A stretch of DNA of 64,000 nt, from assembly GCA_016283075.1 (NCBI GenBank), contig JAEEMF010000018.1, forward strand, positions 2,445 through 66,444, given 5' to 3'. Under the pieces are notes generated by a model that was not told the origin of the DNA, ran no database searches, and worked only from the letters and a program-made list of their open reading frames with translations. This document shows, piece by piece, positions 12,418-63,329 of the stretch. This DNA comes from Bacilli bacterium (GTDB taxonomy: Bacteria > Bacillota_I > Bacilli_A > RF39 > UBA660). Both the position numbers and the translations under genes were made by a program. The stretch's first letter is position 1; every line of letters starts with the position of its first letter.

Positions 12418-14619
12418 CTATCCTAACCAGTTTACTGTCGTATCAGTTGCTCCCCAAGGAGAGCCAGATATTGAACCTTTCTTTCTATTTACATTTATTG
12501 TGGCATTTTTTGTACCATAGAAACAATTTTTATTTATTTTAGATACTTTAGAACCTATTGTTATATTTTTAAGAGACCCTTTATTATAAAATGCTCTTTG
12601 ATCAAGTGCTGTGACATTATCAGGAATTACAAGTGATGTTAATTTGTGATTCTTGAAAGCATCTTTACCAATTGTTTTAAGACCATTTCCGAGTGTTAAA
12701 CTAGTTAATTCATAGCCAATATCATCCCAGAATGCTCCATCTTCTATAGTAGTTATATTATCTGGAATAACTAAATTTTTAATACTATGATTATAGAATG
12801 ATGAATCAGTAATAGTTTTTAAGCCTGATCCAATAGTTAAATTTTCAAGCGCTAAACATCCCGAAAAAGCATGGCCTCCTAAGGACTTAAGACTATTAGG
12901 TAATACAACTTTTTTTAGGTTTATAAGTTTATAAAATGCAAAATTGTCAATACTTTCAAGCCCTTCATTCAAGTCCAGTGTCTTCAAATTTGAAGCTTGG
13001 ACAAAGGCATTATATTCAATCGTTTTAACTGAACCAGGTATTCTAACTGATTCAATGGATGTATCTTTATAAAAAGCATTATCTTTTATAAGTTCAACAC
13101 CATCTTTTATTTCTAAATTGGTTAATGCTTTATTTTCACAAAATGCACAATGACCAATTGTCTTTACAGATCCAGGTATAATTAAATTTTTAAATGCACC
13201 AAGTGTAAATGCTTGAAATCCAATTTCTTCTATTCCATCATGAAGAACCAGATTTGTAATTGTGGAAGTATTATCTCTACTATTAACGAATGAATTTTTA
13301 CCTATTTTTTTAACAGTTCCTGCTATTTCAACATTAACCGAATGGTTATTTGAAAAAGAATCTTGCCCTATAAATTCGATACCGTTTGGAATAACGATAT
13401 TTGTTAAAGAATTGGATTCAAATGCGCCATATGGAATCTTTTTAACTTTTCCATATACAATATTATCTAAATGATTTATAGAAAAAGATGCAAATCCAAT
13501 ATGATTAACATTCTTTAAGTCAAGACTTCCTGACAATGAACTAGAAGCAAAAGCTTTTGAGCCAATATATTCGAGTGATTCAGGTAAATCAAGACTTCCT
13601 AAAGTATTAGCCGCAAAAGCATTAGGTTCAATTTTTTTAACATAATCACCTAGATTTAAGGATTTAAGATTAGAATTATATGCAGCACCAAATGGAATTG
13701 TAGTTAAATACTTAGCACGTGAAAAATCTATACTATCTATTTCATTTATGGAAAGATCACGTTCCGAATAATCGTATGTGAAATAGCAAAATAAATATCC
13801 GTCCCCATCTTCCATTTTATAATAACCAGTTTTTTCTACTAAAGAATCGGAATTCTCAGCGGTATAACAATTTGTTTTAGCAAGTTTAGTTCCTTTATAA
13901 TTAATAATATAGGTAGTTAAGTCATCATTATACTCTATATCCGGGTCATAAATTTCATCATGACCATAATAATCATCTTCATCTTCAAAGATTCTTACTG
14001 CTATAAATCTATCTTTATCAAGGAATGTTAATTTTGCAAGTTCGGTTACTTTTTCTCCATTAATTGTACTAGGTATTATTATATCTCTAGAACATGTTTC
14101 ATCTTCAAATTTATATCCTGTTATAGTAACTCCTGTACTATTAGGTTCGTATGTAAAGCATGAGTTTTCTCCTCTTACATTAATTGGATCACTATAGTAG
14201 TCCTTTAGCTGCTGAGGCTCTTCACCATTAGTGTATGCTTTTGCTCTTGAACTTTCAAATGGTTTTACTGAATGAATTGTTCCTGTTTCATCACTAGCAA
14301 TTAGTGATATCCTGCAGTCTTCATCTATATCCATTATTCCCGAATAAGGAATATCTCCTGTTACATCTATATCTAAATCTTTTATTTTACCTTCTTCGAT
14401 ATAGTATCTTTTACCACCTATTGTTTTTCCATTTAAAACTTCAGTATTACATGTTGATTTAACATGTTCAACTAAATTATTAGATGATGTTTCAAATGCT
14501 TCTTTTTTAGATGCTTCTACAACCGAAGAAATACTTGGCATTGCTATTAAAAGTATAATGCCAAGTATTAATATAATTGCTAGAAGTTCTATTAATGTAA
14601 AACCTTTGTTGTTTTTCAT
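12418..14619 (-). CDS. modular type IV pilin-like protein: prepilin N-terminus fused to BspA-type leucine-rich repeats (paralog 1 of 3)
   Basis: MKNNKG|FTLIELLAIILILGIILLIAMPS is a class III signal (G-F-T-L-I-E plus hydrophobic helix). More than 15 repeats of LRR_5 type follow (IP.sVk.Ig..AF..c..L). Conserved C-terminus GSPWGATDTTVNWLG. Confidence 0.8.
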   Translation of the reverse strand: MKNNKGFTLIELLAIILILGIILLIAMPSISSVVEASKKEAFETSSNNLVEHVKSTCNTEVLNGKTIGGKRYYIEEGKIKDLDIDVTGDIPYSGIMDIDEDCRISLIASDETGTIHSVKPFESSRAKAYTNGEEPQQLKDYYSDPINVRGENSCFTYEPNSTGVTITGYKFEDETCSRDIIIPSTINGEKVTELAKLTFLDKDRFIAVRIFEDEDDYYGHDEIYDPDIEYNDDLTTYIINYKGTKLAKTNCYTAENSDSLVEKTGYYKMEDGDGYLFCYFTYDYSERDLSINEIDSIDFSRAKYLTTIPFGAAYNSNLKSLNLGDYVKKIEPNAFAANTLGSLDLPESLEYIGSKAFASSSLSGSLDLKNVNHIGFASFSINHLDNIVYGKVKKIPYGAFESNSLTNIVIPNGIEFIGQDSFSNNHSVNVEIAGTVKKIGKNSFVNSRDNTSTITNLVLHDGIEEIGFQAFTLGAFKNLIIPGSVKTIGHCAFCENKALTNLEIKDGVELIKDNAFYKDTSIESVRIPGSVKTIEYNAFVQASNLKTLDLNEGLESIDNFAFYKLINLKKVVLPNSLKSLGGHAFSGCLALENLTIGSGLKTITDSSFYNHSIKNLVIPDNITTIEDGAFWDDIGYELTSLTLGNGLKTIGKDAFKNHKLTSLVIPDNVTALDQRAFYNKGSLKNITIGSKVSKINKNCFYGTKNATINVNRKKGSISGSPWGATDTTVNWLG

Positions 14620-14629
14620 ATATATCCCT

Positions 14630-16723
14630 CTATTTTGCCCAGTTTACTGTTGTAGATGTTGCTCCCCAAGGAGAACCTGTTACACTTCCTTCTGGTTTAT
14701 TTATATTTATTGTTGCGGATGTAATGTTTTTAAATGCATTAGATCCTATTTTAGTAATATTAGATCCAATATTAAATGTTTTAATATTAGGACTTTCTGT
14801 AAATGCAGTTACACCTATTTCTTTTACACTATTTGGTAGTGTAAGTGTATTAACATTAAATGATTTATTAAATGCATTTTTACCTATATATTCAAGCCCT
14901 TCATTAAATGTTACTTTCTTAATTGAAGTATATCTACATTTAAATCCTCCTTCTTCAATTCTCTTAATACTACCTGGAATTGTAAGTGAACTAATACGAG
15001 AATTATAGAATGCACTTTTTGGTATTACAGTAAGTTTATTACTTAAAGTTAATGAAGAAAGTTCTCTACATCCATAGAAAGCTCCTTCACCTAAAGAGGT
15101 TAATGTATTAGGAAGTTTAACTCCAGTTAATACTGCATCATTTTGGAATGCCCAACCTCCTATTTCTTCAAGTCCACTATTAAGTGTTAATGTTTTTAAA
15201 AGTGTATTATTGAAGAATGCACCATCACCAATTATCTTAACAGAACTTGGAATTGTAAGCGAAGTAATATTTGTAGTAGCAAATGCTCCCATTTTTATTT
15301 CTTCTATACCACTACCAAGTGTAATTTTAGTAATAGTTGGAACTCCCATTTGATTTTCAAAAGCAGATTCTCCGATTACTTTAACAGATCCAGCAATTGT
15401 TACTGTATCAGTATTACTATCTGCAAAAGATAATCCTCCAATTCCTGTTACAGTACTAGGAATAACAATATTTGTTAAAGTATTATCTTGGAAAGCCATC
15501 TTTGGAATATAACTAACATTACCAAAATTAATTGAATCAATTGAATTTGAATTAAATGCACCCTGACCTATTTTTTCAACTTTATTTAAATCAAGACTTG
15601 ATAAATCATTATCAAGGAATGCAACTCCTCCTATTTCTTTTACATTATCTGGAATTTCAAGTTCAGTAATTGAATTATATCCAAAAGCACTACCACCTAT
15701 TTTAGTAATATAATTACCTATCTTAATACTTGTTAGACCTATACGATGAGCAAGCCCAAAAGGTATTTCAGTTAAATATTTAGCGCGTGAAAAATCAATG
15801 CTGTTTAAAGATACATTACCTTCATCACTACTCTTATTTATAGTGAATAAGCAGAAGTCATATCCATCACCATCTTGTTTATCATACTTACCTTCTGTTT
15901 CAAATACAATTGTGCTGCCTACATAACATGTAGTTTTTTTAACAAAAGAACCTTTATTATATACAGCTAAATTGTATTCAATAGAATCACTATCTTCAAA
16001 ACTAGGTAAATCATCACTATCTACATCTAAAACCATCATACTACCTGAACGGCTAAGACTATAAGGTCCTTTTGGTATTGATGTTCTCATAACGAAGAAT
16101 TTTTCTTTATCTACAAAAGCAAACTGTTTTAACTCAGTAACATTATTTCCTCCAATACTTGTAGGAATAATTACATCTTTAGAACAAGATTCATTTTCAA
16201 ATTTATATCCAGTAATAGTAACTCCTGTACTATTTCTTTTATATAAGAAACATGTATCAGTAGGACTTTCATTTATAGGTAAATTATTATATCTTTCAAG
16301 TTCTTCAGATTCTTCACCTATTTTATATGTCTTAGCTTTAGAAGAATCATAATCTTTTACAGCATAATATTTTTCTTCTTTATCTTCAACATATAAAGCT
16401 ACCTGACAATCATCATTAATAGTAATAGTCCCACTATTTGGTATTTCACCATCATAAGATATATCAAGGCCATCTATCTTACCATCATTAATAGTGTATA
16501 CTCCTGATAAGTTTTTGCCAGTAGAAGCATAAGTATTACATGTTGATTTAACATTACTAGATAAGTTATTTGAAGTAGTTTCAAAAGCTTCCTTTTTAGA
16601 AGCTTCAACAACTGAATTAATACTAGGAATTGCTATTAAAGCTATAATTCCAAGTATTAATATGATTGCTAAGAGTTCTATTAAGGTAAATCCTTTGTTT
16701 TTCTTCTTAGTAAGTATTTTCAT
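14630..16723 (-). CDS. modular type IV pilin-like protein with BspA-type LRR domain (paralog 2 of 3)
   Basis: MKILTKKKNKG|FTLIELLAIILILGIIALIAIPS, then an LRR_5-type repeat array. C-terminus GSPWGATSTTVNWAK. Confidence 0.8.
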   Translation of the reverse strand: MKILTKKKNKGFTLIELLAIILILGIIALIAIPSINSVVEASKKEAFETTSNNLSSNVKSTCNTYASTGKNLSGVYTINDGKIDGLDISYDGEIPNSGTITINDDCQVALYVEDKEEKYYAVKDYDSSKAKTYKIGEESEELERYNNLPINESPTDTCFLYKRNSTGVTITGYKFENESCSKDVIIPTSIGGNNVTELKQFAFVDKEKFFVMRTSIPKGPYSLSRSGSMMVLDVDSDDLPSFEDSDSIEYNLAVYNKGSFVKKTTCYVGSTIVFETEGKYDKQDGDGYDFCLFTINKSSDEGNVSLNSIDFSRAKYLTEIPFGLAHRIGLTSIKIGNYITKIGGSAFGYNSITELEIPDNVKEIGGVAFLDNDLSSLDLNKVEKIGQGAFNSNSIDSINFGNVSYIPKMAFQDNTLTNIVIPSTVTGIGGLSFADSNTDTVTIAGSVKVIGESAFENQMGVPTITKITLGSGIEEIKMGAFATTNITSLTIPSSVKIIGDGAFFNNTLLKTLTLNSGLEEIGGWAFQNDAVLTGVKLPNTLTSLGEGAFYGCRELSSLTLSNKLTVIPKSAFYNSRISSLTIPGSIKRIEEGGFKCRYTSIKKVTFNEGLEYIGKNAFNKSFNVNTLTLPNSVKEIGVTAFTESPNIKTFNIGSNITKIGSNAFKNITSATININKPEGSVTGSPWGATSTTVNWAK

Positions 16724-16802: not shown

Positions 16803-18890
16803 TTATCCAAGCCAGTTTACTGTTGTAGATGTTGCTCCCCAAGGAGAATTTGCAACTGAACCACTAGCTTTATTTATATTAATTGTTGCACCAGTAACCG
16901 AAGTAAATGCTGTATTATGAATAGTTTTAATACCACTTCCAATATTAACTGTTTTTATACTCTTACTTCTAAATGCACCTTCACTTATTTCTTCAACATT
17001 ATCAGGAATATTAATAGTATCAGATTTTATCTGATCAAACGCATATTTTCCAATTGTTTTTAAACCGCTTCCAATTGTAAGAGTATGACTACTTCCTAGT
17101 GGAGAACCAAAAGCCCAGCTGCTAATTGATGTTACACTATCAGGTATTACAATATTTGTTAATCTATTATGATTAAATGCATATTCACCAATTGTTTCAA
17201 CACCGCTTCCAAGGTTTAATGTTGAAGCGTTACAGTTATTAAATGCATAACCACTTATTGTCTTAACACTATTTGGGATATTAATTGTTCCAATACTATT
17301 ATCATTATTAAACGCATAATATCCAATGGATTCAAGTCCTTCATTTAGAACAAGATTTGATAGTACACCACATCCAGCAAATGCAGTTCGACTTATTGTT
17401 TTTACTGAACCAGGAATATTTAAAGAAGTAAGATTACATTGTCCAAACGCACGATACCCGATGAATTCTACTCCGTTATCTAAAACAAGAGAAGTAAGAT
17501 AGTTGTCATTTCTATTATCTCCATTATAAAATGCATCTGAACTTATTCTTTTAACAGAACCAGGGATATGTGCATACTGAATTTTATTATTATAAAATGA
17601 AGATGAGCCAACTGCGGTTACAGTGTTAGGTAAATCAACTCTTGGAATTAAATTAACAGCAAAAGTAAAATGTTCAACTCTATTTATTATACCAAACTTT
17701 ATATCATCAATTTGATTATGATAAAAAGCATCTGGTCCAACCTTTTCAACGTTTTTTAAATCAAGAGATGTTATATTATTATTAAAAAATGCATCTCCAC
17801 CAATAATTTTCAAATTATTAGATATATCAATAGAAGTAATACTATTTGCATTAGTATTAGTTTTACCGTTTGATTTAAAAGCACCAGCTCCTATTTTTGT
17901 AATGTAATTACCAATTTTAATACTAGTTAATCCCATGTTAGCAGCAACACCTCTTGGTATTTCTGTTAAATACTTAGCATGAGAAAAGTCTATACTATTT
18001 AGTGTATATGGATAAGTTACTGAATTAGTAGTATTTGCTGAAGGCTGACAAAAAAGATATTCATCATCTAAAGTGTGATTATAGTCTGCACCTTCTGAAT
18101 GTAAGGTTCCGGATGAATCAGAACAAGTATATCCAGTTATTTCTGTACCTTTTTTAAGAATAAGAAGTGTTATTTTATTATCATCTTTTGTAATTGTATC
18201 TTTATCATATTTAAGATAATCCATAGATACCTTTCCATCAGTATACTCAATATAATATGAATAATAAATAATTGATTCTGGATCTATAAAAGCAAATTCT
18301 TTTATAGCAGTAACATTTTTACCACCTATTGATGTTGGTATAACTACATCTTTAGAACATGATTCATCTTCATGTTTATATCCTGTTATTGTTACTCCTG
18401 TACTATTGTTTTCATATAAGAAACATGAATTATTTTGAGGAGCATATATAGGAATTTCACTATTATTTATTAATGAATCATTTACTGTTCCTTTATCATA
18501 GATTTCTACTCTTTCATCTTTAAAATCCTTGTATGCTACGTAGTTACCTGAATCATCTTCAGCATATATAGATACTTCACATTTTTCATTTATAGAGATA
18601 AATCCTGATTTAGGGAGTTTACCTGTAACTTCAAGTTTTAATCCCACTACTTCATTATCTACGATATCGTAAGTTTTAGCTTCAACTTGTCCTGATATCA
18701 TAAGAGTTTGACAGTTAGTACTTGCTCCTTTAGCAATATTATCTGAAGATACTCTAAATGCTTCTTTCTTAGATTGGTTTATTACACTATTAACACTAGG
18801 TATTGCTATTAGTGCAATAATACCAAGAATAAGTATTACAGCAAGTAATTCTATTAAAGTAAATCCATTTGTATTCTTACGTATTTTCAT
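16803..18890 (-). CDS. modular type IV pilin-like protein with BspA-type LRR domain (paralog 3 of 3)
   Basis: MKIRKNTNG|FTLIELLAVILILGIIALIAIPS, then an LRR_5-type repeat array. C-terminus NSPWGATSTTVNWLG. Confidence 0.8.
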   Translation of the reverse strand: MKIRKNTNGFTLIELLAVILILGIIALIAIPSVNSVINQSKKEAFRVSSDNIAKGASTNCQTLMISGQVEAKTYDIVDNEVVGLKLEVTGKLPKSGFISINEKCEVSIYAEDDSGNYVAYKDFKDERVEIYDKGTVNDSLINNSEIPIYAPQNNSCFLYENNSTGVTITGYKHEDESCSKDVVIPTSIGGKNVTAIKEFAFIDPESIIYYSYYIEYTDGKVSMDYLKYDKDTITKDDNKITLLILKKGTEITGYTCSDSSGTLHSEGADYNHTLDDEYLFCQPSANTTNSVTYPYTLNSIDFSHAKYLTEIPRGVAANMGLTSIKIGNYITKIGAGAFKSNGKTNTNANSITSIDISNNLKIIGGDAFFNNNITSLDLKNVEKVGPDAFYHNQIDDIKFGIINRVEHFTFAVNLIPRVDLPNTVTAVGSSSFYNNKIQYAHIPGSVKRISSDAFYNGDNRNDNYLTSLVLDNGVEFIGYRAFGQCNLTSLNIPGSVKTISRTAFAGCGVLSNLVLNEGLESIGYYAFNNDNSIGTINIPNSVKTISGYAFNNCNASTLNLGSGVETIGEYAFNHNRLTNIVIPDSVTSISSWAFGSPLGSSHTLTIGSGLKTIGKYAFDQIKSDTINIPDNVEEISEGAFRSKSIKTVNIGSGIKTIHNTAFTSVTGATININKASGSVANSPWGATSTTVNWLG

Positions 18891-23350: not shown

Positions 23351-25048
23351 CTATTTACAACTCTTAGTTCCAGTTAAACTGTAACCTTTGTTTAGTAATG
23401 AAGTATCATTATCTGAACTACTCCATCTAATATCAACAGTACCTGAAATGTATTGTTTTTCTTTGTATCTATAGTATGTTACATTTTCAACAACATTTTC
23501 TTTCTTATAGATAGCAACTGTCTTAACACATTTTTCTCCATTTAGAGTGTAACCTTTTTTGTTACATGCGTAAGATACAGATTCTTTCTTATCTATTTCT
23601 TTATTGTAAGTTCCATAACATCTATCCTTAGTATCATTTAATTTATATCCTTGTGGACAGCTTGGATCTTTCTTTATTGTTTCTTTAATAGTTCTTGAAC
23701 AATAACTATCAGTTGCAATATCATATCCTTGTGGACAGTGAGCTGGTTTAATATCAGTAGAGGCTACTGTTTTAACACATTCACTACCAACTTGAGTATA
23801 AGATGAATCAGGGCAAGTCTTAGAAGCATATTCTTTTGTTTCTTGACATCCTGTAGTTGTAACAACAGCTTTGTAAATATTATATGTTACTAAAACCTGA
23901 TCTTTACACTCTGGTAAACAACTTGCATCTGTTCTTGTACTAATAGTTTCATAAATATATGTACTATTATTTGCAGGTTTATATGTTTTATCATATTCAG
24001 TTCCTACATAAGCACCTTTAGTTGTAGTAGTTTTGCAACCAGTTGTTTGTTTTTTAGAACAACGGTCACCATCTTCATCATATCCTTGTGGACATACAAG
24101 TGCTTTTTTATCAGTTTCAGATGATTGTTTATAACATTTGTTACCACTTGGTGTATAACCAGCATCATCACAAACATAATATGCATGAGTTATAGTAGTT
24201 TTTGTACCATAACATACACCATTTGTTGGGCCATCATATCCTGATGGACATTTTGAATTATAATATGCAGTTACAGGTTTAACACATTTTCCTGTAGACT
24301 TATCTTCGTTATAACCTTTTGGACAGTACTTAGTTACTGTTTTAGCAGCAGCTTCTTCTTCTGTCTTATAACCACTAATAACATCTTTAGTACCAGTGAC
24401 TACTTTTTCTGTTTTAGTTTCAACTTTACGATATTCTGATGCAGTAGCTTTAGTAGTTGACCAGCTTGACCAGTTACCAAAGTCACCCCATGATCCATTA
24501 GTTACTTTCTTATATTCATATTGACAAGTAACAACCTTTTTAGGTTCATTACAAGTAACTACTGGAGTTTCTTTCTTTTCACATACTCCTGTTGCTTTAC
24601 AATAATCGTAGCATCCTAAGTGAACGATTATATAAGCATCATTATCAGTACATGATAAGTTAACCTTCATTTGATATTCATTTTCAAGTTTTACAACTTC
24701 TACATAAGAGTCTTTTAAATCACAACTTTTACCATTACCATCTTTAAATTCAACAAGTAATTTATTATCAATCATTTCCTTTAAAGTCATAGATTTAACA
24801 TCTTTAACTTTTTCTGGTAATCTTTCAGTAGTGTAATAACTTACAGCAGCATCTTTCATTGTTTGTAAGTTAGTATTAAATATACCACTTGTTAAAGCAT
24901 CTAATTTACTGTTAATATCAGCAAATTCTTTATTTATACTACCCTTTGTAGGAAATAAACAAACTAGTATAAATACGAATAAAACTATGAATAATATTTG
25001 GATAAAAATATCTCTTAATGAGAAACCATCATTTTTTTCACTATACAT
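23351..25048 (-). CDS. Cys-repeat surface protein with degenerate prepilin-like N-terminus
   Basis: The RBS GAGGGGGA favours the ATG at 25048, giving MYSEKNDG|FSLRDIFIQILFIVLFVFILV. There are 8 copies of C-x3-[GS]Y-x5-7-C (e.g. CPKGYNEDKSTGKC, CPQGYDEDGDRC). Also a WGDFGNWSSWS motif and a C-terminal YYRYKEK. Confidence 0.6.
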   Translation of the reverse strand: MYSEKNDGFSLRDIFIQILFIVLFVFILVCLFPTKGSINKEFADINSKLDALTSGIFNTNLQTMKDAAVSYYTTERLPEKVKDVKSMTLKEMIDNKLLVEFKDGNGKSCDLKDSYVEVVKLENEYQMKVNLSCTDNDAYIIVHLGCYDYCKATGVCEKKETPVVTCNEPKKVVTCQYEYKKVTNGSWGDFGNWSSWSTTKATASEYRKVETKTEKVVTGTKDVISGYKTEEEAAAKTVTKYCPKGYNEDKSTGKCVKPVTAYYNSKCPSGYDGPTNGVCYGTKTTITHAYYVCDDAGYTPSGNKCYKQSSETDKKALVCPQGYDEDGDRCSKKQTTGCKTTTTKGAYVGTEYDKTYKPANNSTYIYETISTRTDASCLPECKDQVLVTYNIYKAVVTTTGCQETKEYASKTCPDSSYTQVGSECVKTVASTDIKPAHCPQGYDIATDSYCSRTIKETIKKDPSCPQGYKLNDTKDRCYGTYNKEIDKKESVSYACNKKGYTLNGEKCVKTVAIYKKENVVENVTYYRYKEKQYISGTVDIRWSSSDNDTSLLNKGYSLTGTKSCK

Positions 25049-25177
25049 ACACATATCCCCCTCAATTTCAGGTTATTATAACACTTTTTGGCATTTTGTC
25101 AAACTGATTAGGGCACACCAAAAATCTATTTTCATTAACAATAAAATTATATCATTATATATATATAAATGTCAAAG

Positions 25178-32609: not shown

Positions 32610-32611
32610 TT

Positions 32612-46953: not shown

Positions 46954-46977
46954 ACAAAAAAGAGACTTTCGTCTCTT
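46954..46977 (-). terminator. rho-independent terminator ending the glycine-rich gene array
   Basis: AAGAGAC-TTTC-GTCTCTT plus a T-run on the minus strand, abutting the stop at 46977. Confidence 0.7.
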
Positions 46978-48152
46978 TAAACACCTAGAAAAGTAATTTT
47001 TATGGAACCATCGCCTTCTTTAGGGCATTTACTTATTGCATTAACACTATGACCATTGGGACAGGTAGAAGGATTCCCTTCTTCTGGGTTAGTATAAACG
47101 GATATTGTTTTTGTTTGAGTTGCTGAAGAAGAGGTACAATTATAACAGTACATAGCCTTGGTAACGCTTGGTGTAGACATTAATTTTGAAGAAGCGATAT
47201 AGGAAGAACCTCCTCCGCCTCCAGAACCATAGTCATTACCAGAACCTCCTCCATAGAAGCCGCCTCCGCCTCCAGCTCCAGCCCAACCATCATTTGCGAC
47301 ATCACCAGCATCTCCGCCCTTGCCAAAATTGCCTACAAATCCACCTCTTGTATCTTGAGCTAAAGCAGTACCACCAGAAATTTGAGTACCACCTCCGCCT
47401 CCTGTTGCAGGAGGATTTCCACCGCCTGTTTGATTATGACCTTTTGTACCGGAGATACCTCCGCCATCACCTCCATAATGACCAGTTCTCCAGTATCCGG
47501 CTCCTCCGCCACCAGCGGCAACAATTAATATATCATCCGATATATAATAATCAGTATTTAAAATTCCTTTATAAGATTCGAGTGATGCTAATTCACCTTG
47601 GATAAATGAAACGGAAGTAGCTCCTCCACCACCGGCACCGTATCCACCATCATCACTACTATTTAGTTTCCCATATCCACAGGCTTTACCTCCACCATTG
47701 AAACCTCCACCATATGGTGCTTCTAAATAATAACTTGTTATATCTGCCGGTTTACCACCAACATTAACATATAAAACATCATCTTCTTCAAGGCTTACTA
47801 CACCGACAGCATAAGCACCATATCCTCCGGAAGCACCATTAGCACCTCCTCCTTGAGCACCCCATACCTCTATTTGATATAATCCATCGCATCTACTTGT
47901 AAATTTATCACTAATAGTTTCAGTTCTTTCATATACTACGTCACCGGGACGATAAGGACATCCAAACACACACTGTCTAGTTACATCGTATAAATCATCT
48001 AAAGCATCTTTAGTATTATCTACATTCCATTCTGTATCTGTAGGAGTATATCCTACATCACTTGCTATATATGAGTATGCAAAAACAGCGCTTATACTAA
48101 TAAACGATACTAATATCAAGAAAATTATTTTTGATTTAAATATTTTCTTCAC
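46977..48152 (-). CDS. secreted glycine-rich protein, ALK/LTK-GRD-like (Gly_rich) domain (G1, subtype I)
   Basis: GTG start with an AGGAG RBS. Signal peptide ...SAVFA|YSY and N-module YIASDVGYTPTDTEWNVDNTKDALDDLY. Motifs IEVWGAQGGG, VAAGGGG, GGGGGFYGGG, GGGGGSSYI; C-terminus GDGSIKITFLG. Confidence 0.75.
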   Translation of the reverse strand: MKKIFKSKIIFLILVSFISISAVFAYSYIASDVGYTPTDTEWNVDNTKDALDDLYDVTRQCVFGCPYRPGDVVYERTETISDKFTSRCDGLYQIEVWGAQGGGANGASGGYGAYAVGVVSLEEDDVLYVNVGGKPADITSYYLEAPYGGGFNGGGKACGYGKLNSSDDGGYGAGGGGATSVSFIQGELASLESYKGILNTDYYISDDILIVAAGGGGAGYWRTGHYGGDGGGISGTKGHNQTGGGNPPATGGGGGTQISGGTALAQDTRGGFVGNFGKGGDAGDVANDGWAGAGGGGGFYGGGSGNDYGSGGGGGSSYIASSKLMSTPSVTKAMYCYNCTSSSATQTKTISVYTNPEEGNPSTCPNGHSVNAISKCPKEGDGSIKITFLGV

Positions 48153-48167
48153 GCTGCATACTCCTAT

Positions 48168-49349
48168 CTATTCTATCCCTAAATAAGTAATCTTAGCATA
48201 TCCATTTCCAGTATTACCATTCATTGTTGCAGTACTAGCATAGTTTGGCATTCCCGATACTGTTGTAGCTTTAACAGTTGACCAGCTATATCCTGCTCCA
48301 TCTATCATAACAGTATTAGTAAACGATTTACTGCTATAATGTACACTACATCCATCATTAGATGTTGGATTAGTATTACATCCAGATATTTTTATAGCGC
48401 GAGGATTTGAAATTGAATTCTCGGCTATTGCTACACATCCAGCGTGGCCAGATATATATGATGAACCGCCTCCGCCGCCAAATGAGTAACCGCCTTGGCC
48501 ACCACCTCCGCCGTAGTAGCCTCCGCCGCCTCCGCCGCCGCTATACCATCCACTACTTATATCAGAAGCATTTCCACCTATACCAAATATTCCAGGATTA
48601 GTATTACTACAATATCCAGAACCACATCCTGAAGCAGTACCACCTGATATTTGAGTACCACCTGTTGCTAAAGCAAGATTAGCAGATGCTTGTCTTATAT
48701 CTTTAACACCGCTATAACCAGTAAGACCACCAGCAGCACCACCATTACCACTACCACTAGCAGCAGCTTCGCCACCTAATGCTCCGCCTCCACCACCAGC
48801 TACCATTATTCTATCTTCTAAAGCATTTCTCATAAATCGAACATCTGTAGCACCACCACCAGCACCACCTGTTCCTTTATAGGGATTAGTTGAAGTAAAT
48901 GTTTGACCTCCGCCATTATATCCTGCTGCTACTGTTGTTGGTTTTCCGCCGATATAGATATATATAGTTTGTCCTCTATTAAAGCTAATATCACCTTTAA
49001 CATAAGCACCTTTTCCACCAATACCTACTTGACTATCTCCACCTTGGGCTCCCCAAAGTTCTATACGATAATTTCCTTTACAAGGTATATTAAATACTTT
49101 TCCAGTACCTGTATATGTACTTTCAAACACTATGTCATATGCATTATAAGGACAACTAAAATCACAATGAGTTGCTTTATCATATAAGGATTCTAAACCT
49201 TGATCAACATTTTCTACTTCCCATTCATTATCTATAGGAGTAAATCCTATTTCTTCTGCTATATAAGAGTATGCTAAAGCAACACTTGTACTAAAAACAA
49301 GCGCACCAAGTATTACGAAAAATAATTTTGATTTAAAAATATTTTTCAT
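48168..49349 (-). CDS. secreted glycine-rich protein, Gly_rich-like domain (G2, subtype II)
   Basis: Same N-module. Motifs IELWGAQGGD, MVAGGGGG, GGGGGGGYYGGGGG, GGGGGSSYISGHAGCVAI; C-terminus GNGYAKITYLG. Confidence 0.75.
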   Translation of the reverse strand: MKNIFKSKLFFVILGALVFSTSVALAYSYIAEEIGFTPIDNEWEVENVDQGLESLYDKATHCDFSCPYNAYDIVFESTYTGTGKVFNIPCKGNYRIELWGAQGGDSQVGIGGKGAYVKGDISFNRGQTIYIYIGGKPTTVAAGYNGGGQTFTSTNPYKGTGGAGGGATDVRFMRNALEDRIMVAGGGGGALGGEAAASGSGNGGAAGGLTGYSGVKDIRQASANLALATGGTQISGGTASGCGSGYCSNTNPGIFGIGGNASDISSGWYSGGGGGGGYYGGGGGQGGYSFGGGGGSSYISGHAGCVAIAENSISNPRAIKISGCNTNPTSNDGCSVHYSSKSFTNTVMIDGAGYSWSTVKATTVSGMPNYASTATMNGNTGNGYAKITYLGIE

Positions 49350-49372
49350 GTTGCATACTCCTTCTATTTTTA

Positions 49373-50446
49373 TTAATTCTTACCTAAATAAATAATTTTT
49401 ACAGCTCCACTTCCAGATTTAGCACAATTACTAACTGCTATACTGCTATATCCATCAGGACAGTTAACACTATCTTTATTACTTCCTGTTGTTGAAATTG
49501 TTTTAGTAGCCGGTTCACTTGACTCTGTACATCCATAGCAGTACATTACTGCATCATGAAGACCAGAGTTACCGATATATCCGGAACCACCACCTCCACC
49601 AGAGTGAATTCCGCATCCTCCGCCGTAGAAGCCTCCTCCTCCAGATACTCTCATATAAGAGCCATATGAAGAGCTAGCATTACATCCTACACCAAATGTA
49701 GGAGCAGTAAAGCTTGAGTAAGAAGTTGATCCAGAGGTTCCTGCTTCAAGCTGTGTTCCACCAGTACCTGGTTTTCTATCAGTATTATTACTTCCTGTTC
49801 CACTTCCACCAGATGTACCACCACCTGATCCACCAGTACCATTTGTATTACCAGATCCAGAAGCAGAACCACCTCCACCACCAGCAACAATTAAAAGTTT
49901 GTCAGTATTAGAGGCATATTCAAAGAGTAATCCAGTTCCAATTAACTGAGTTGCAATATGAGTAGCTCCTCCTCCAGCTGAGCCTATATATCCGCCAGAC
50001 TGAATACTTGATCTACCTCCACCATTATATCCGCCATTACCAGAAGTACTACCAGATCCACCAACAACCACATAAAGTTTATCAAAACGATTTAATTCAA
50101 CAATACCAACTGAATATCCACCATATCCACCATTATAAGAATCACTAGCATCACCACCTGATGCACCCCATGCTTCTATCTTATAATGACCAAAATAAGG
50201 TGCAACAAATTCAACAACATCGCCTGAAGGTCCATATCTCCAGTCATGATTAATATAGTCACTATAAGTACCTATTTCTCCATATAAATAATCAAGTGCC
50301 TCTTTGGTATTTTCTACATCCCAGTCATCTTCTTCTGGAGTAAATCCTACTTCTTGTGCCAAATAAGAGTATGCTAAAACACTTAGTGCTAAACCTAAGC
50401 AAATACCAACTATAAGTATTGTTAAATCTCTTAAGCGTTTTTTCAT
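49373..50446 (-). CDS. secreted glycine-rich protein, Gly_rich-like domain (G3, subtype I)
   Basis: Motifs IEAWGASGGD, IVAGGGGG, GGGGFYGGG, GGGGGSGYIG, MYCYGCTESS; C-terminus GSGAVKIIYLG. Confidence 0.75.
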   Translation of the reverse strand: MKKRLRDLTILIVGICLGLALSVLAYSYLAQEVGFTPEEDDWDVENTKEALDYLYGEIGTYSDYINHDWRYGPSGDVVEFVAPYFGHYKIEAWGASGGDASDSYNGGYGGYSVGIVELNRFDKLYVVVGGSGSTSGNGGYNGGGRSSIQSGGYIGSAGGGATHIATQLIGTGLLFEYASNTDKLLIVAGGGGGSASGSGNTNGTGGSGGGTSGGSGTGSNNTDRKPGTGGTQLEAGTSGSTSYSSFTAPTFGVGCNASSSYGSYMRVSGGGGFYGGGCGIHSGGGGGSGYIGNSGLHDAVMYCYGCTESSEPATKTISTTGSNKDSVNCPDGYSSIAVSNCAKSGSGAVKIIYLGKN

Positions 50447-50462
50447 ACTTTATTCCTTTCTA
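50344..50462 (-). repeat. near-identical about 119-bp 5' segment shared with 51641..51759 (RBS plus first about 34 codons of G3 and G4)
   Basis: By-eye alignment shows only about 6 mismatches, whereas the rest of G3 and G4 belong to different subtypes. Confidence 0.8.
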
Positions 50463-51743
50463 CTGTCTGCCAAGATAAGTTATTCTTGCATATCCATCTC
50501 CTGTGTTACCTGTCATTGATGATAATGAACTATGACTTGGCATTCCTGTTACAGTTGATGCTTTAGCAGAAGTCCATTCATAGCCTTTTCCATCAACCAT
50601 TTTTGTATTCGTAAAATATAATCCACTATAATGAATACTACATTCATCACTTGATGTTGGATTAGATGAACATGACGATATTTTAACTTCACGTGGTTCA
50701 CTAGTTGAACCACTTTTTATTGCTACACAACCAGAGTGACCTGATATAAAAGAAGAACCTCCTCCGGCTGCTTTCCAAACACCGGCTCCTCCACCGTAAT
50801 AGCCTCCGCCTCCGCCACCTTGAGAGATGTCAGATCTAGAAGGATTTGTTATTGTAGCACCTTTACCAAATTTACCTGGATAAGTATTAGTAAGGCTAGT
50901 ACTTTGCCAGTCATGTACACTAGTACCACCAGAACTTTGCCCTCCTGATATTTGAGTACCACCTGTTGGAGTTACAGTTGAGAATCCTCCAGTACTAGCT
51001 ACATAAGCGGCGTAAGCGGTTAATCCTCCAGCTGATCCTCCGTCAATTATTGAATAGTTGCTAGCAGTAGCATAATTTTGATGCATACCACCGCCTCCTC
51101 CAGCAACCATAATTCTAGAGTTTAGTCCTATATCTGAATCCCAAGCAAGTTGTCCTGATGTTGGAGTAGTACCAAAATATCTAATATCGGTAGCACCTCC
51201 ACCACTTGATATTTGTCTATAATATCCAGCACTTTCTCTTAAATATCCATCGGCGCCACCATTGTAACCACCTGTTGCAGTTCCAACACCAGCCGAATAT
51301 CTTTGAACACCTTTTCCACCTACAAAAACATATAATTTTATTGTTGGGTCTAATGATATTTCACCTTTGGTATAACCACCTTTACCACCTACAGCATTAC
51401 CGTTTAAACCGTCATTTGATAAATCTTCTCCATCTCCTCCGGATGCTCCCCATAGTTCAATTCTATAGTCACCATCACAAGGTGGTTCAAATAAATCTCC
51501 AAATCCTAAATAACCACTTTCATAAACTACATCTCCTGGAACATATCTACAACTAAAATCACATGATTTAGCTACATCGCGAAGATCATCTATTGCATCT
51601 TTTGTATTATCTACATTCCATTCTGTATCAGTAGGAGAATATCCTACTTCTTGAGCTAAATAAGAGTATGCTAAAACACTTAGAGTTAAACCTAAGCAAA
51701 TACCAACTATAAATATTGTTAAATCTCTTAAGCGTTTTTTCAT
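50460..51743 (-). CDS. secreted glycine-rich protein, Gly_rich-like domain (G4, subtype II)
   Basis: Motifs IELWGASGGD, MVAGGGGG, GGGGGGYYGGG, GGGSSFISGHSGCVAI; C-terminus GDGYARITYLG. Confidence 0.75.
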   Translation of the reverse strand: MKKRLRDLTIFIVGICLGLTLSVLAYSYLAQEVGYSPTDTEWNVDNTKDAIDDLRDVAKSCDFSCRYVPGDVVYESGYLGFGDLFEPPCDGDYRIELWGASGGDGEDLSNDGLNGNAVGGKGGYTKGEISLDPTIKLYVFVGGKGVQRYSAGVGTATGGYNGGADGYLRESAGYYRQISSGGGATDIRYFGTTPTSGQLAWDSDIGLNSRIMVAGGGGGMHQNYATASNYSIIDGGSAGGLTAYAAYVASTGGFSTVTPTGGTQISGGQSSGGTSVHDWQSTSLTNTYPGKFGKGATITNPSRSDISQGGGGGGYYGGGAGVWKAAGGGSSFISGHSGCVAIKSGSTSEPREVKISSCSSNPTSSDECSIHYSGLYFTNTKMVDGKGYEWTSAKASTVTGMPSHSSLSSMTGNTGDGYARITYLGRQ

Positions 51744-51759
51744 ACTTTATTCCTTTCTA
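51641..51759 (-). repeat. partner copy of repeat 50344..50462
   Basis: Same alignment: ...ATCCTACTTCTTG..AAATAAGAGTATGCTAAAACACTTAG...CTCTTAAGCGTTTTTTCATACTTTATTCCTTTCTA. Confidence 0.8.
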
Positions 51760-52272
51760 TTAGTTAAAATTATTTTTCACAAAATTCAAGTGAGACCATA
51801 CCCCAGTATTATTTCCTGTAGCTCTAATTGTAATTGATACTTGCTGACCTTTTTCTAAATTTATAATTGTATTTTCAATAAATCCCCAAGTATTTACACT
51901 TCTATTTGTATGGTTAACACCATCTACTTTAATAGTCCAAGATGAACTAGCCATAGCTGAACCAGCAGCTCTAACCCCATAACTAATAATAATAGTTCCT
52001 TTTGTTGTTGCTGTATATGAGGCAGAACATGATGGATTATTTTGACTAGCTCCATAAAAACATCCACCAACTGTTTTTATCTCAACGTTCTCATTAGCTA
52101 TTCTATATAAATCATCTAAAGCTTCTTTTGAATCTTCGACATCCCACTCCAAGTCAGTAGGAGTAAACCCAACATCCTGTGCAAAATAAGAGTATGCAAA
52201 AACAGCACTTATACTACATACAAGTACTCCAAGCATAAAGAAAAACAATCTACTTCTAAATATTTTCTTCAT
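51760..52272 (-). CDS. secreted protein with the array's shared N-module but a non-glycine-rich beta-rich C-domain
   Basis: MKKIFRSRLFFFMLGVLVCSISAVFA|YSYFAQDVGFTPTDLEWDVEDSKEALDDLY, followed by an about 110-aa domain without Gly runs. By homology with its neighbours, the second ATG (52272) is the start. Confidence 0.7.
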   Translation of the reverse strand: MKKIFRSRLFFFMLGVLVCSISAVFAYSYFAQDVGFTPTDLEWDVEDSKEALDDLYRIANENVEIKTVGGCFYGASQNNPSCSASYTATTKGTIIISYGVRAAGSAMASSSWTIKVDGVNHTNRSVNTWGFIENTIINLEKGQQVSITIRATGNNTGVWSHLNFVKNNFN

Positions 52273-52290
52273 ACGCATACTCTTTTCTAT

Positions 52291-53448
52291 TTATTCACCT
52301 AAATAGGTTATTCTTGCATATCCAGCACCGCTTTTAGCACACATGCTTACTGGACTATTACTATATCCACTTGAACAGTTACTATTTCTTTCATCTTCGT
52401 GTGTTGTTATTCCATATGTTGATACTGTATAAGTTGATAAATCACTACTTTCAGTGCAGTTATAACAGTACATTTTATTTACTATATTATTTGCTTCATT
52501 TTGTATAAGACGGTTACTTCCTATATAACCAGATCCTCCACCTGCTCCAAGTCCACTAGATGAGTACCCACCGTAGAAGCCTCCGCCTCCGCCAGCTTCA
52601 CCATAGTAGTTCATCCATCCGCCTTGACCAAATGTTCCAGCATTAAAGTATGAACCTGTTCTTGTATCTGCAACTTGTAATCCACCATATCCGCCGGCAG
52701 GGCTATAGGTTCCGCAAGATCCTTTATTATAGTCGTAAGCGTCTACTCCGTTTACGCCTCCGCCGTGTCCGCCAGAACCATAACACACATATCTATTGCT
52801 ATTGTTGTAGTAACCGGAGCCTCCACCACCACCAGCAACAATTAGTAGTTTTCCTGTACTAACATGTGCTGATAGGTTTTTAAGTTCTCCGGAAACTAAA
52901 GCAAAACTAGTTGCTCCTCCACCAGAACCATAACATTCACCATTTGCACCACTTCCGTCAGATGCTCTACCTTTACCACCGCCATTATATCCTCCATCAA
53001 CTGGGGTATTATTTTTAGTAGCAGTAAGTCCTTGCCCTCCAACATTTACATAAATAGAGGTCCCTTCTTCTATCTCCATAGTTCCTGTAGAATATCCACC
53101 ATATCCTCCTGGTTTAGAAGCACAGTCAGAGTCTCCTCCTTGTGCTCCCCAGGCTTCTAGTTTATAAGTTCCTGTACATTCCGGATTAAATACTTGCTGA
53201 GCACCAGTACTTCCTCCTTCAAAAACGATATCACCATTAGAATAAGGACATGTTACTCTACAACCACTTGTTATATCATTTAAATCATTTAAAGCCTGAC
53301 TTACATTTTGAACGTTCCACTCAGTATCATTTGATGTAAATCCTAAATTTATAGATGCATAATCATATGCTAAAACGGCACTTATCATACTAAACATAAG
53401 TGCTCCAAGAATAAAGAAAAATATTCTCGATTTTAGCATTTTTTTCAT
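52291..53448 (-). CDS. secreted glycine-rich protein, Gly_rich-like domain (G5, subtype I)
   Basis: Motifs LEAWGAQGGD, IVAGGGGG, GGGGGFYGGY, GAGGGSGYIG, MYCYNCTESS; C-terminus GAGYARITYLG. Confidence 0.75.
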   Translation of the reverse strand: MKKMLKSRIFFFILGALMFSMISAVLAYDYASINLGFTSNDTEWNVQNVSQALNDLNDITSGCRVTCPYSNGDIVFEGGSTGAQQVFNPECTGTYKLEAWGAQGGDSDCASKPGGYGGYSTGTMEIEEGTSIYVNVGGQGLTATKNNTPVDGGYNGGGKGRASDGSGANGECYGSGGGATSFALVSGELKNLSAHVSTGKLLIVAGGGGGSGYYNNSNRYVCYGSGGHGGGVNGVDAYDYNKGSCGTYSPAGGYGGLQVADTRTGSYFNAGTFGQGGWMNYYGEAGGGGGFYGGYSSSGLGAGGGSGYIGSNRLIQNEANNIVNKMYCYNCTESSDLSTYTVSTYGITTHEDERNSNCSSGYSNSPVSMCAKSGAGYARITYLGE

Positions 53449-53461
53449 ATGCATATCCTTT

Positions 53462-54622
53462 CTAATTTAAAGAAGTATAGGTAATACGAATATAACCATT
53501 ACCTGCTTTAGCGCATCCACTTATAGGAAATGAATCATATCCACTAGTACAGCTTTCATTTCTTTCAGCAGTATGAGTACTTGTTCCATGCGTTGAAACT
53601 GTGTATGTTCTAAGTTCACTACTTTCTAGGCAGTCATAACAAAACATTTTATTTAATATGTTATTACTAATATTTTGAACAAGAAGCTGACTTCCAATAT
53701 ACCCAGAACCACCACCTGATCCTAAAGCTCCAGATGAGTATCCGCCGTAAAAGCCTCCGCCTCCGCCAGACTGTCCAAAGTTATCTAGCCATCCACCTTG
53801 TCCAAAAGAACCAGGTCCCATATAAGTAGCAGTCCTAGTATCAGCAACCTGCATTCCACCATATCCACCAGATGATGCTACAGCGTTACAACTATTTTTA
53901 GCCCAGTCATAAGCGTCTACTCCGTTTACTCCTCCGCCGTGTCCGCCAGATCCATAACATCTATATGAGCCCATAGAATGGTAGTAGGAAGATCCTCCGC
54001 CACCACCAGCTACAACTAATATTTTTCCATCTTCTATATGTTCGGATAATGTATTTAAAGTACCAGAATTTAAGGCTACTGAAGTAGCACCTCCTCCTGA
54101 TCCAGAACACTCACCTTGTGAACCTAGACCATCAGAAATTCTACCTTTACCACCACCATTATATCCGCCATCTACTGGACTATTATTATTAGTAGCAGTA
54201 TTTCCTTTTCCACCAACATTTATAAATAAAGGAGTTCCTACATTTATATTGGCATATACTACTGAATATCCTCCATATCCACCTGGTCTTGAATCACAAG
54301 ATGCATCTCCACCTTGCGCACCCCATACTTCAATTTTATATGTTCCACTACACAGAGGAGTAAAGGTGTCTTGCTCTCCTATATAGTTTGAAGTATATAC
54401 TACTGAATCATGTTCATAAGGGCATCCAAATTCACATGTATTAGTTACACTGTATAAATCATCTAAGGCTTCAGTTACATTTTCAACTGGCCACTCTTCG
54501 TCATCAGGAGTAAAGCTAAAACTAGACGATACATAATCATATGCTAAAACAGCACTTATACTACCAAAAATAAGTGCTCCAAGGACAAAGAAAAAAGTTC
54601 TTGATTCTAGCATTTTCCTCAT
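53462..54622 (-). CDS. secreted glycine-rich protein, Gly_rich-like domain (G6, subtype I)
   Basis: Start MRKMLESRTFFF at 54622 has an AGGGAG RBS; the track start at 54682 is an extension. Motifs IEVWGAQGGD, VVAGGGGG, GGGGGFYGGY, GSGGGSGYIG; C-terminus GNGYIRITY. Confidence 0.75.
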   Translation of the reverse strand: MRKMLESRTFFFVLGALIFGSISAVLAYDYVSSSFSFTPDDEEWPVENVTEALDDLYSVTNTCEFGCPYEHDSVVYTSNYIGEQDTFTPLCSGTYKIEVWGAQGGDASCDSRPGGYGGYSVVYANINVGTPLFINVGGKGNTATNNNSPVDGGYNGGGKGRISDGLGSQGECSGSGGGATSVALNSGTLNTLSEHIEDGKILVVAGGGGGSSYYHSMGSYRCYGSGGHGGGVNGVDAYDWAKNSCNAVASSGGYGGMQVADTRTATYMGPGSFGQGGWLDNFGQSGGGGGFYGGYSSGALGSGGGSGYIGSQLLVQNISNNILNKMFCYDCLESSELRTYTVSTHGTSTHTAERNESCTSGYDSFPISGCAKAGNGYIRITYTSLN

Positions 54623-54670
54623 AAGCCTACACTCCCTATTGTATATATTAATTATATCATATAAATCCAT

Positions 54671-54700
54671 AACAAAAAACATATAGTTGACTATATGTTT
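54671..54700 (-). terminator. terminator-like hairpin in the leader of the glycine-rich array
   Basis: AAACATATAG-TTGA-CTATATGTTT (10-bp arms) followed by TTTGTT on the minus strand, about 50 nt upstream of the G6 start. Confidence 0.45.
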
Positions 54701-55264: not shown

Positions 55265-55266
55265 AA

Positions 55267-56058: not shown

Positions 56059-56060
56059 AA

Positions 56061-57825: not shown

Positions 57826-58160
57826 ATAATCCTCTCCTATTCTTATTCCTATTTCATATTTTACTATGAAAAAAGCGCGTAAGTCCACTAATAATTTTTT
57901 AATTATTAGTGACTCCGCGCATATTTGCCCGTGTAAGAAAATATTCCCTGTGTAGCTCGATAACTTATACACACTCACTTTTTCCAACAATATTTTTTAT
58001 TAATCTGCAACTCCTAGATTAATTAGCTTACGCAGGTGACAAACAAAAAAGCCACGAGCAAAACTGTTCGTGACTCCAATTACTATTGTGTAGGTATTAA
58101 CCCGAGATAGCTCGCTTACGCTTATATCTCCTCACTTAACTACATAATAACATAATTTTT
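57826..58160 (-). promoter_or_regulatory. structured 5' leader or ncRNA candidate with two intrinsic-terminator hairpins
   Basis: Locally GC-enriched 335-nt non-coding gap. Hairpin plus T-run at 58044-58074 (GCCACGAGCAAAACTGTTCGTGAC). Long hairpin plus T6 at 57869-57920 (GCGCGGAGTCACTAATAATT...AATTATTAGTGGACTTACGCGC). Repeated CGTAAGC, GGAGTCAC and GAGCTA words. Confidence 0.5.
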
Positions 58161-61810: not shown

Positions 61811-61898
61811 AAAACTTACCCTTTCGTATTGTTTTTATCCTAGAACTATTATATAATATAACTAGAATAAAAGTCTAGTCTAAAAGAGGATAAAGGGG

Positions 61899-63329
61899 AT
61901 GAATTTTTTTATGTTGCGAACATTTGATTTCGAAAAAATACCTATAGTAGAAATCGTTAACGATATATTACTTGACTCTGCAAAACGTGGCGCAAGTGAT
62001 ATTCACTTCGACCCTCAAGATGAAAATATGAAGGTAAGAATTCGTATCGATGGTTCACTTCAAAACTACTGTGAAGTTCCAAATTCTATTAAAAAGAATT
62101 TAACAACTCGTATAAAAATTATAGCTGGTATGAATATAACAGAATCAAGATTACCTCAAGATGGTGCTATCAAAACACAAATACAAGATACTGACCTAGA
62201 TCTCCGTGTTTCGGTACTTCCTATTAGTACAGGTGAAAAGATCGTTATCCGTATCCTTGACTATACAAAGAGTTTAAGTGGACTAGAACAATTAGATTTT
62301 AGTGAAGCAAATTATAAAAAATTATTATATATGATTGGTGTACCAAATGGTATTATCCTAGTAACCGGAGCTACTGGTTCTGGTAAATCTACAACAGTAT
62401 ACTCTATTCTTCAAAGATTAAATAAAGAAGATACAAACCTAATTACTGTAGAAGATCCAGTCGAAATGGATATAGCTGGTATTAACCAAGTTCAAGTTAA
62501 TAGTGAAATAGGACTTACATTTGCAGCAGCACTTCGTTCTATCTTACGTCAGGACCCTAACATTATAATGATCGGAGAAATTCGTGATACTGAAACTGCA
62601 AAGATAGCTGTTCGTGCTTCTATTACTGGACACTTAGTATTATCAACAATCCACACCAATAGTGCTTTAAATACTATTGAACGTTTACTAGATATGGATG
62701 TTGAAAGATACTTACTATCAAGTGCCTTAACTGGTATGATATCTCAAAAACTTGCTAGAAGACTATGTCCTCACTGCAAGAAGTTAAGACCAACTAATGA
62801 ATACGAAAAGAAATTATTTAAGAAAACACTTAATATGGATATAAATGAAGTTTATACAGCTGTTGGATGCGACAAATGTACAAATGGGTATACGGGACGT
62901 ATGGCAATACATGAAGTACTTGTTATTAATCAGGAAATTCGTGATGCTATATCTGCTAATACACCAAAAGAAAAACTTCGTGAATTAGTTTATAGTGGTG
63001 ATACTAAATCAATGCTTCAGGATGGTCTTGAAAAAGTTATTCAAGGACATTCAACTATTGAGGAAATCCTAAAACTAATCGAACTTGAAGATGACGATTC
63101 ATTAAGTGATGATGAAGATTTAAGAAAAGTACTTGAAAAATCTACAGCAGAAGTAAATGCTAGACCTCCAGTACAACAAGGTGTGCCTGCTGCTCAACCA
63201 CAAGTTATGCAGCAACCTACTCCAAATCCTGCTGGATTTACTCCAGGACCTGCGCTTAATCAAGCACCAGCTCCTACCCCAGCACCACAACCTGGTATAG
63301 CAGATTTACTTAATAAAGTACAACAATAA
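61899..63329 (+). CDS. type IV filament assembly ATPase (GspE/PilB/ComGA family) with Pro/Gln-rich C-terminal tail
   Basis: Walker A GATGSGKSTT, Asp box ITVEDPVE, Walker B NIIMIGEIRD, His box GHLVLSTIHTN, tetra-Cys CPHC...CDKC. The last 56 aa are low-complexity P/Q/A. Confidence 0.88.
   Translation: MNFFMLRTFDFEKIPIVEIVNDILLDSAKRGASDIHFDPQDENMKVRIRIDGSLQNYCEVPNSIKKNLTTRIKIIAGMNITESRLPQDGAIKTQIQDTDLDLRVSVLPISTGEKIVIRILDYTKSLSGLEQLDFSEANYKKLLYMIGVPNGIILVTGATGSGKSTTVYSILQRLNKEDTNLITVEDPVEMDIAGINQVQVNSEIGLTFAAALRSILRQDPNIIMIGEIRDTETAKIAVRASITGHLVLSTIHTNSALNTIERLLDMDVERYLLSSALTGMISQKLARRLCPHCKKLRPTNEYEKKLFKKTLNMDINEVYTAVGCDKCTNGYTGRMAIHEVLVINQEIRDAISANTPKEKLRELVYSGDTKSMLQDGLEKVIQGHSTIEEILKLIELEDDDSLSDDEDLRKVLEKSTAEVNARPPVQQGVPAAQPQVMQQPTPNPAGFTPGPALNQAPAPTPAPQPGIADLLNKVQQ

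Follow-up and report, generated by a model that had tools for sequence, protein, structure and literature searches.

The stretch of DNA considered here, referred to as the window, comprises 64,000 nt of contig JAEEMF010000018.1 (positions 2,445 to 66,444; assembly GCA_016283075.1) from a Bacilli bacterium of the RF39 lineage (UBA660). It encodes prepilins and a GspE/PilB-type ATPase, to which the adjoining DNA of a nearly identical strain adds a prepilin peptidase and a PilC/GspF-type platform protein, and we consider it reasonably probable that these form a core-only type IV filament which presents adhesin modules on a pilin chassis. Every type IV filament has four core components, namely pilins, peptidase, ATPase and platform (Pelicic 2023, PMC10191384), and the predicted proteins support a filament system in which each of these types is accounted for (Table 1).

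A six-frame search of the whole window with the regular expression G-[FY..]-x-x-x-E combined with a hydrophobic stretch found exactly five class III signals, i.e. a charged leader, Gly(-1), Phe or Met at +1, Glu(+5) and about 20 hydrophobic residues. These are the same five that a preliminary description of this DNA had listed as canonical prepilins, all of them large (323-733 amino acids, aa). A looser, hydropathy-based scan of the window added one open reading frame (ORF) only, a 567-aa Cys-rich protein discussed below, and neither scan revealed a small pilin in the window. The earlier remark that no small major pilin is visible holds for the window, a minor portion of the genome. The five ORFs are modular pilins in the sense of Raynaud et al. 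2021, who combine the IPR012902 motif with a non-pilus domain: LRR_5 in three of them, ALK_LTK_GRD with an immunoglobulin (Ig)-like domain in the fourth, and two MucBP-like domains in the fifth. Pfam, homologue annotation and fold search agree with the modules as first described (three BspA-type leucine-rich repeats, LRR; Ig plus PGII glycine-rich; MucBP-like).

Table 1. Filament genes and other features of the window and of the adjoining sister-strain DNA
Feature	Position	Strand	Evidence and remarks
Class M prepilin, 733 aa	12418..14619	-	N_methyl 6e-7, LRR_5 1.3e-82 (Pfam)
Class M prepilin, 697 aa, BspA-type LRR_5 module	14630..16723	-	N_methyl, LRR_5 1.7e-89 (Pfam)
Class M prepilin, 695 aa, BspA-type LRR_5 module, third paralogue	16803..18890	-	N_methyl, LRR_5 3e-70 (Pfam)
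Class B prepilin, 540 aa	59215..60837	-	Regular-expression signal; ALK_LTK_GRD 3e-32 (Pfam)
Class A prepilin, 323 aa	60839..61810	-	Regular-expression signal
Extension ATPase, GspE/PilB/PilF type, 476 aa	61899..63329	+	T2SSE 1.7e-126 (Pfam); divergent from two pilin genes
Prepilin peptidase, 257 aa	window-equivalent ~64478-65251		Sister strain; A24_N_bact 6e-31, Peptidase_A24 2.8e-13, GGGD motif
Platform protein, 664 aa	window-equivalent ~65265-67259 (L001 9487-11481)		Sister strain; T2SSF 4.6e-48, two stretches; GspF 261 bits
335-aa ORF, 3' part in window	63353..64000	-	No family match; runs off window; complete as L001 7575-8582
Cys-rich ORF, ~565-567 aa, start MYSEKNDGF	23351..25054	-	EGF-like Cys-rich repeats; family of 799 matches
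Seven tandem genes, Sec-type secreted proteins with a common N-terminal leader	46977..54682	-	ALK_LTK_GRD in six, 1e-31 to 1e-43 (Pfam)

The one assembly ATPase of the preliminary description proved to be of the extension type by Pfam, NCBIfam and PDB scores alike. The NCBIfam profiles gave 486 bits for GspE, 470 for PilB, 266 for ComGA and 182 for PilT, and among PDB entries the GspE, PilF and PilB proteins scored 333-356 bits as compared with 119 for PilT. The protein keeps the CxxC...CxxC motif; it lacks the N-terminal N1 domain, as the alignment begins at about position 106 of the GspE profile and 177 of the PilB profile. Its C-terminus is a Pro/Gln-rich low-complexity tail of some 80 aa (residues ~395-476). 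The length of the ATPase in relatives is 399-560 aa, with a few longer ORFs of up to 901 aa.

An identical ATPase protein is encoded on a contig of assembly GCA_016295205.1 (L001), a sister strain that matches the window at 97.6% identity along 8.1 kb; this contig continues past the window end. The portion of the genome inspected was thereby about 73 kb, i.e. the window and 9.5 kb beyond its end. The order past the ATPase in the sister strain is the 335-aa ORF, the prepilin peptidase, the platform protein, TruB and CysS, with peptidase and platform located about 0.5-3.5 kb past the window end and the platform starting at about 1.3 kb. The preliminary description had made its filament depend on a peptidase and a platform protein somewhere in the genome; the extension ATPase is thus joined, via the sister strain, by a peptidase and by a platform with two T2SSF domains. 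The same compact cluster of T2SSF protein, PilD, ATPase, pilin A (323 aa) and pilin B (537 aa) is found in a close relative (L082). The 335-aa ORF stands between ATPase and peptidase in this species and is absent from that place in L002-L004, L011 and L082. As for the platform, it has an N-terminal extension of about 260 aa, in which two to three predicted membrane helices are followed by a segment rich in Lys and Glu that is probably coiled; platforms of relatives measure 709-905 aa.

For comparison we scanned species-representative genomes with the ATPase, which gave 80 loci with 60-77% identity, and these were followed up by ORF maps and BLAST. All 80 come from uncultured gut metagenome-assembled genomes titled 'Bacilli', 'Mollicutes', 'Tenericutes' or 'Clostridium sp. 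CAG'. Across these roughly 80 genomes we recognise three pilin classes, termed A, B and M, and each occurs both in a bare form (about 120-190 aa) and in module-bearing forms. Genes of class A (KG↓FMLxE, the arrow marking the predicted cleavage site) and class B (KG↓Y/F/A-x-T-V-E) lie head to head with the ATPase gene across the clade.

The class B pilin of the window has the leader MKKNG↓FTVVE, a pilin module (~aa 1-180), an Ig-like domain (~aa 185-276) and an ALK/LTK-type glycine-rich (PGII) domain (aa 281-540). Its homologues mostly combine PF16403 (Ig-like) with PF12810, several of them with N_methyl (PF07963), and F6 and E10 are invariant among them. The AlphaFold2 model (predicted local distance difference test, pLDDT, 88) places a helix at residues 8-62, followed by a beta head, the Ig domain and the glycine-rich domain, and Foldseek aligned it with the TG/GRD structures of ALK and LTK (7nx1, 7lrz) and with Ig domains. 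The class A pilin (leader MKKLNRKG↓FILTE) has its pilin module at aa 1-158 and two MucBP-like beta domains at ~aa 177-252 and 254-321. Pfam gave no match for this protein itself, and 3 of the 28 homologues found carry a PF06458 MucBP annotation; in 24 homologues G8, F9 and E13 never vary. In its model (pLDDT 83) the two beta domains come after a long helix at the N-terminus and a small alpha/beta head, which reaches to about residue 158, and the Foldseek matches were mucin-binding domains of YwfG, Mub-RV, MUB, Spr1345 and lmo0835 (7yl4, 4mt5, 3i57, 3nz3). Homologue annotation and fold matches hence show the labels 'MucBP-like' and 'Ig + PGII glycine-rich' to be correct. Both class A and class B pilins are without Pro22.

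The three class M pilins differ from these in having the helix KG↓FTLIELLAV...P22, of the type typical of major pilins, and the best PDB matches of the LRR-pilin N-terminus are major pilins. The 733-aa protein (MKNNKG↓FTLIE, with Gly14 and Pro22) consists of a pilin module of about 135 aa followed by a BspA-type LRR_5 solenoid. It is 48% identical to the 697-aa paralogue overall and 85% over the first 60 aa; among all three the identities are 42-48% overall and 64-85% over the first 60 residues. Their N-terminal modules align with entire small class M pilins, e.g. at 37% across 91 aa in the case of one pilin of 120 aa. The trio forms an insertion specific to the lineage, located between GlmS and UppP, and is unchanged in the sister assembly GCA_016295205.1, which encodes a protein identical to the 697-aa pilin. 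Class M in relatives comprises small pilins of 119-168 aa, present in many of them, and modular forms of 342, 369, 598 and 725 aa. A metagenome scan with the LRR-pilin N-terminal module gave three loci only and no small paralogue.

That the extra domains are additions to a pilin follows from the existence of bare orthologues. At the same locus in many relatives, bare class A orthologues of 157-190 aa align to residues 1-158 of the 323-aa pilin, and bare class B orthologues of 145-192 aa to residues 1-167 of the 540-aa pilin; other relatives have versions of 230-583 aa at the same positions with different C-termini (Laminin_G_3 in L021, ALK_LTK_GRD in L058). We further determined the frequency of such forms by an exhaustive profile-free search with residues 1-160 of class A against 1.84 billion cluster representatives, which gave 511 matches. 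Among the best 150 of these, 79 are bare (<200 aa) and 71 extended (206-986 aa), and G[FYW]xxxE is present in 147. Pfam assigned ALK_LTK_GRD to 17 of the 71 long forms, Laminin_G_3 to six, DUF285 to three, and LRR_5, MucBP, Flg_new and Sialidase-N to two each, with single cases including Fibrinogen_C, Dockerin, PT-HINT and fn3. With 71 of the best 150 representatives extended, by at least 10 domain types, the proposal that a type IV filament serves as chassis for interchangeable adhesin domains gains support, since relatives carry differing grafts on the same pilin chassis. The comparison thus supports the C-terminal modules as putative lineage-specific grafts on conserved pilin chassis, and the lineage appears to be a hot spot for modular pilins.

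The preliminary description had regarded the concept as only sparsely documented, which does not hold. Here it should be noted that we take IPR026906 to be the entry for BspA-type LRR. Modular pilins were defined by Raynaud et al. 2021, whose list has 1,219 of them, distributed over 264 architectures, as against 179,543 single-module pilins (PMC8179133). Their Dataset S1 includes IPR012902-IPR026906 (18 proteins with one copy, 6 with two and 3 with three), among the 15 commonest, with IPR026906 given in the paper only as a domain of unclear function, and IPR012902-PF12810 (2 and 1 proteins); MucBP accessions are absent from it (PMC8179133). Since pilin plus LRR_5 and pilin plus PF12810 are both in that dataset, the concept was already published, as were two of the three architectures found here. 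New are the density of modular forms in the clade, the modular build of all five pilins in view, and the core-only, non-Com machinery. The modular share is 71 of the best 150 class A representatives here and 1,219 of about 180,000 globally, far higher here, the counts having been made differently. A literature search on RF39 pili, on pilins fused to BspA and on the bacterial function of PF12810 returned nothing specific.

The closest known parallel in architecture is the pair of Streptococcus sanguinis pilins PilB (vWA) and PilC (lectin), in which a class III pilin module is likewise fused to a non-pilus binding domain (PMC8179133; PMC9934059). Both cases concern a monoderm, host-associated bacterium with several different modules in one system. 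Unlike in S. sanguinis, all five pilins seen here are modular, no bare major pilin like PilE1 or PilE2 is in view, the modules are LRR_5, two MucBP-like domains and Ig with GRD, and no PilM/N/O/T gene lies near the cluster. The LRR_5 repeat family is shared with the adhesins Tannerella forsythia BspA and Treponema LrrA, which are presumed to bind protein and to have an adhesive role; here, however, the repeats are attached via a type IV pilin module in place of a secretion or anchor signal typical of BspA.

On the standard type IV filament model, the peptidase would cleave each prepilin after Gly(-1), and the mature pilins would be held in the membrane by their hydrophobic N-terminal helix until ATPase and platform together raise them into an elongating helical fibre, which passes through the wall. 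Pilins A and B, which are without Pro22 like minor or tip pilins, would most likely initiate assembly and come to lie at the filament tip, and their modules may be presented as are those of S. sanguinis PilB and PilC. The BspA-LRR pilins, having Gly14 and Pro22, would be incorporated along the shaft or would themselves be the shaft. The net function of such a filament would be adhesion to host, mucus or other cells.

Several points weigh against this reading. The locus is known here from genes alone, and peptidase and platform were seen in the sister strain, outside the window itself. The placement of class A and B pilins at the tip, a prediction, is derived solely from the absence of Pro22 and from gene position, and a PDB sequence search with their pilin modules returned nothing meaningful, i.e. 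no solved sequence relatives. Neither the window nor L001 nor the compact clusters of relatives contain a PilM/N/O or PilT gene, the sole PilM_2 match being FtsA; the N-terminal extension of the platform might stand in for the missing PilM/N/O. A system of the four core components only is known in the Com pilus (PMC10191384), and core-only machines are so far characterised for Com alone, whereas ATPase and platform here are nearer the GspE/PilB and GspF/PilC profiles. Finally, no bare major pilin occurs within about 73 kb around the cluster.

This last point raises the question of what the shaft would consist of. In a 'bottle-brush' arrangement there would be no bare major pilin at all, and a core-only non-Com machine would build a shaft from the three Pro22 LRR pilins, each bearing a solenoid of about 560 residues (~60 kDa), with a MucBP/GRD tip. 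The canonical major-pilin helix of the LRR pilins, their best matches to major pilins in PDB and the lack of a small pilin in the window and the 9.5 kb beyond are in accordance with this, as is the observation that among the closest relatives (L001-L011) the class M pilins seen are modular only (342 aa in L011, and 598 aa in L007, where the gene directly adjoins the ATPase gene). However, the portion of the genome inspected is about 73 kb only, small class M pilins are common in other relatives, in several of which they lie between MutS and ThiI, far from the cluster, and L047 encodes a small class M pilin as well as a modular one. A 42-kb stretch of one close relative holds no class M pilin, so class M genes can be distant, and it is therefore quite possible that a bare major pilin is encoded elsewhere in this genome. 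The packing of a 60-kDa module on each subunit is also hypothetical, and we regard the all-modular shaft as rather unlikely.

Two further explanations concern the nature of the machine. Pseudopilus-like stubs or oligomers might merely push the modules through the peptidoglycan, as a short wall-spanning stalk or 'bindosome-like' display. In archaea, a dedicated ATPase/membrane pair serves to assemble sugar-binding proteins that have class III signals, and the absence of a retraction ATPase or PilMNO near this core-only cluster, the bulk of every visible substrate and a weak BasE profile match fit such a display. The bindosome ATPase match is 30 bits, however, far below GspE and PilB, and core-only Com machinery makes micrometre-long pili in streptococci (PMC10191384), hence we hold the stalk to be improbable. 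We are equally doubtful that the system is primarily the DNA-uptake (Com-like) pilus of the lineage, with adhesin modules secondary. Its composition does equal that of the Com pilus, with five pilins, peptidase, ATPase and platform and no PilMNO (PMC10191384); the LRR-pilin N-terminus gives weak ComGC and ComGE matches, and one homologue of the 323-aa pilin is named ComGC by JGI. The ComG-type matches span the generic N-terminal helix only, though, and ComGA (266 bits, cut-off 300) and ComGB (120 bits, cut-off 240) score below GspE (486) and GspF (261), all of them under curated cut-offs. Further, the gene order is unlike that of the comG operon, pilins and ATPase are divergently transcribed, the pilins are large and adhesin-bearing and the platform is extended, and the window holds no ComEA or ComEC gene. 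Weighing these points, we favour the adhesin-presenting filament.

The preliminary description had also put forward a degenerate sixth prepilin with a Cys-repeat, which we reject. This 567-aa protein has no Pfam match, and across 120 homologues Gly(-1) is not conserved, being present in the closest ~25 only and otherwise replaced by S, R, K or N, while position +5 is D, S or T and never Glu. The family shows a nearly invariant hydrophobic segment ending in LFPTK, and the N-terminus is a predicted signal anchor with no class III signal. A homologue is located beside an ATPase gene in L048; we consider this placement coincidental, as the neighbouring gene is no pilin and that ATPase group is an orphan. 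The Cys-rich gene is always paired with a gene of about 450-540 aa without assigned function (here 21956-23344). Just upstream of it are two perfect 12/12 sigma-70 consensus promoters (25175-25146 and 25102-25075).

Also the seven tandem glycine-rich genes, first described as a secreted family related to one of the modules, were considered as non-canonical pilins or machine substrates, and were rejected on account of their Sec-type leaders, the lack of a class III or G-x4-E motif in all seven by regular-expression and hydropathy scans, and their location in a lineage-specific island. The description as secreted stands, and six contain ALK_LTK_GRD; the 172-aa member shares the N-terminal leader only. 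This leader is a Sec-type signal with an A-x-A-like site, followed by AYSYxAxxVGFTPxDxEWNVxNxKxALDDLY. The same leader is found on phage-tail-collar (PF07484) proteins in the sister strain (L001 15289-17409), and it looks like a second, non-pilin 'handle' for different C-terminal modules. The predicted tie of the seven proteins to the filament system is the ALK_LTK_GRD module that they share with the class B pilin, and this only. The island (46977-57990), with a GNAT acetyltransferase and an ABC-2 transporter besides the seven genes, lies between MutS and a PDZ/Lon-like gene; it is absent from the close relative L082, which has two unrelated genes there instead.

The window as a whole has a GC content of about 27%, rising at 46-54 kb, the position of the glycine-rich genes, and is coded nearly entirely on the minus strand. 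Its housekeeping genes are FtsZ, FtsA, MurG, MurB, UppP, GlmS, MutS, XseA and NusB, and no tRNA genes were found in it. Promoter and terminator scans of the AT-rich window gave matches at chance level, uninformative on operons. Four tandem paralogous giant ORFs (998, 1059, 985 and 1060 aa) occupy 26369-38732 on the minus strand; PADLOC gave no match for any of the four, and Pfam none for the two that were scanned (26369-29365 and 29340-32519). They are followed by a 277-aa HipA_C-like ORF (38809-39642, minus strand) with a weak match to the candidate defence family PDC-M03A, and a second HipA_C-like ORF is located at 5491-6318, also on the minus strand.

Gut Bacilli of this kind, uncultured and with reduced genomes, are abundant, and a compact pilus with swappable adhesins (mucus-binding, LRR, lectin, glycine-rich) could plausibly serve them in colonisation. 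The clade offers a natural series of three pilin chassis, either bare or with many grafts, and is suited to study how a minimal ATPase-platform machine lets bulky subunits through. It could also show whether a filament can consist entirely of modular pilins, which, if true for the bacterium studied here, would mean a type IV filament fully coated with adhesins.

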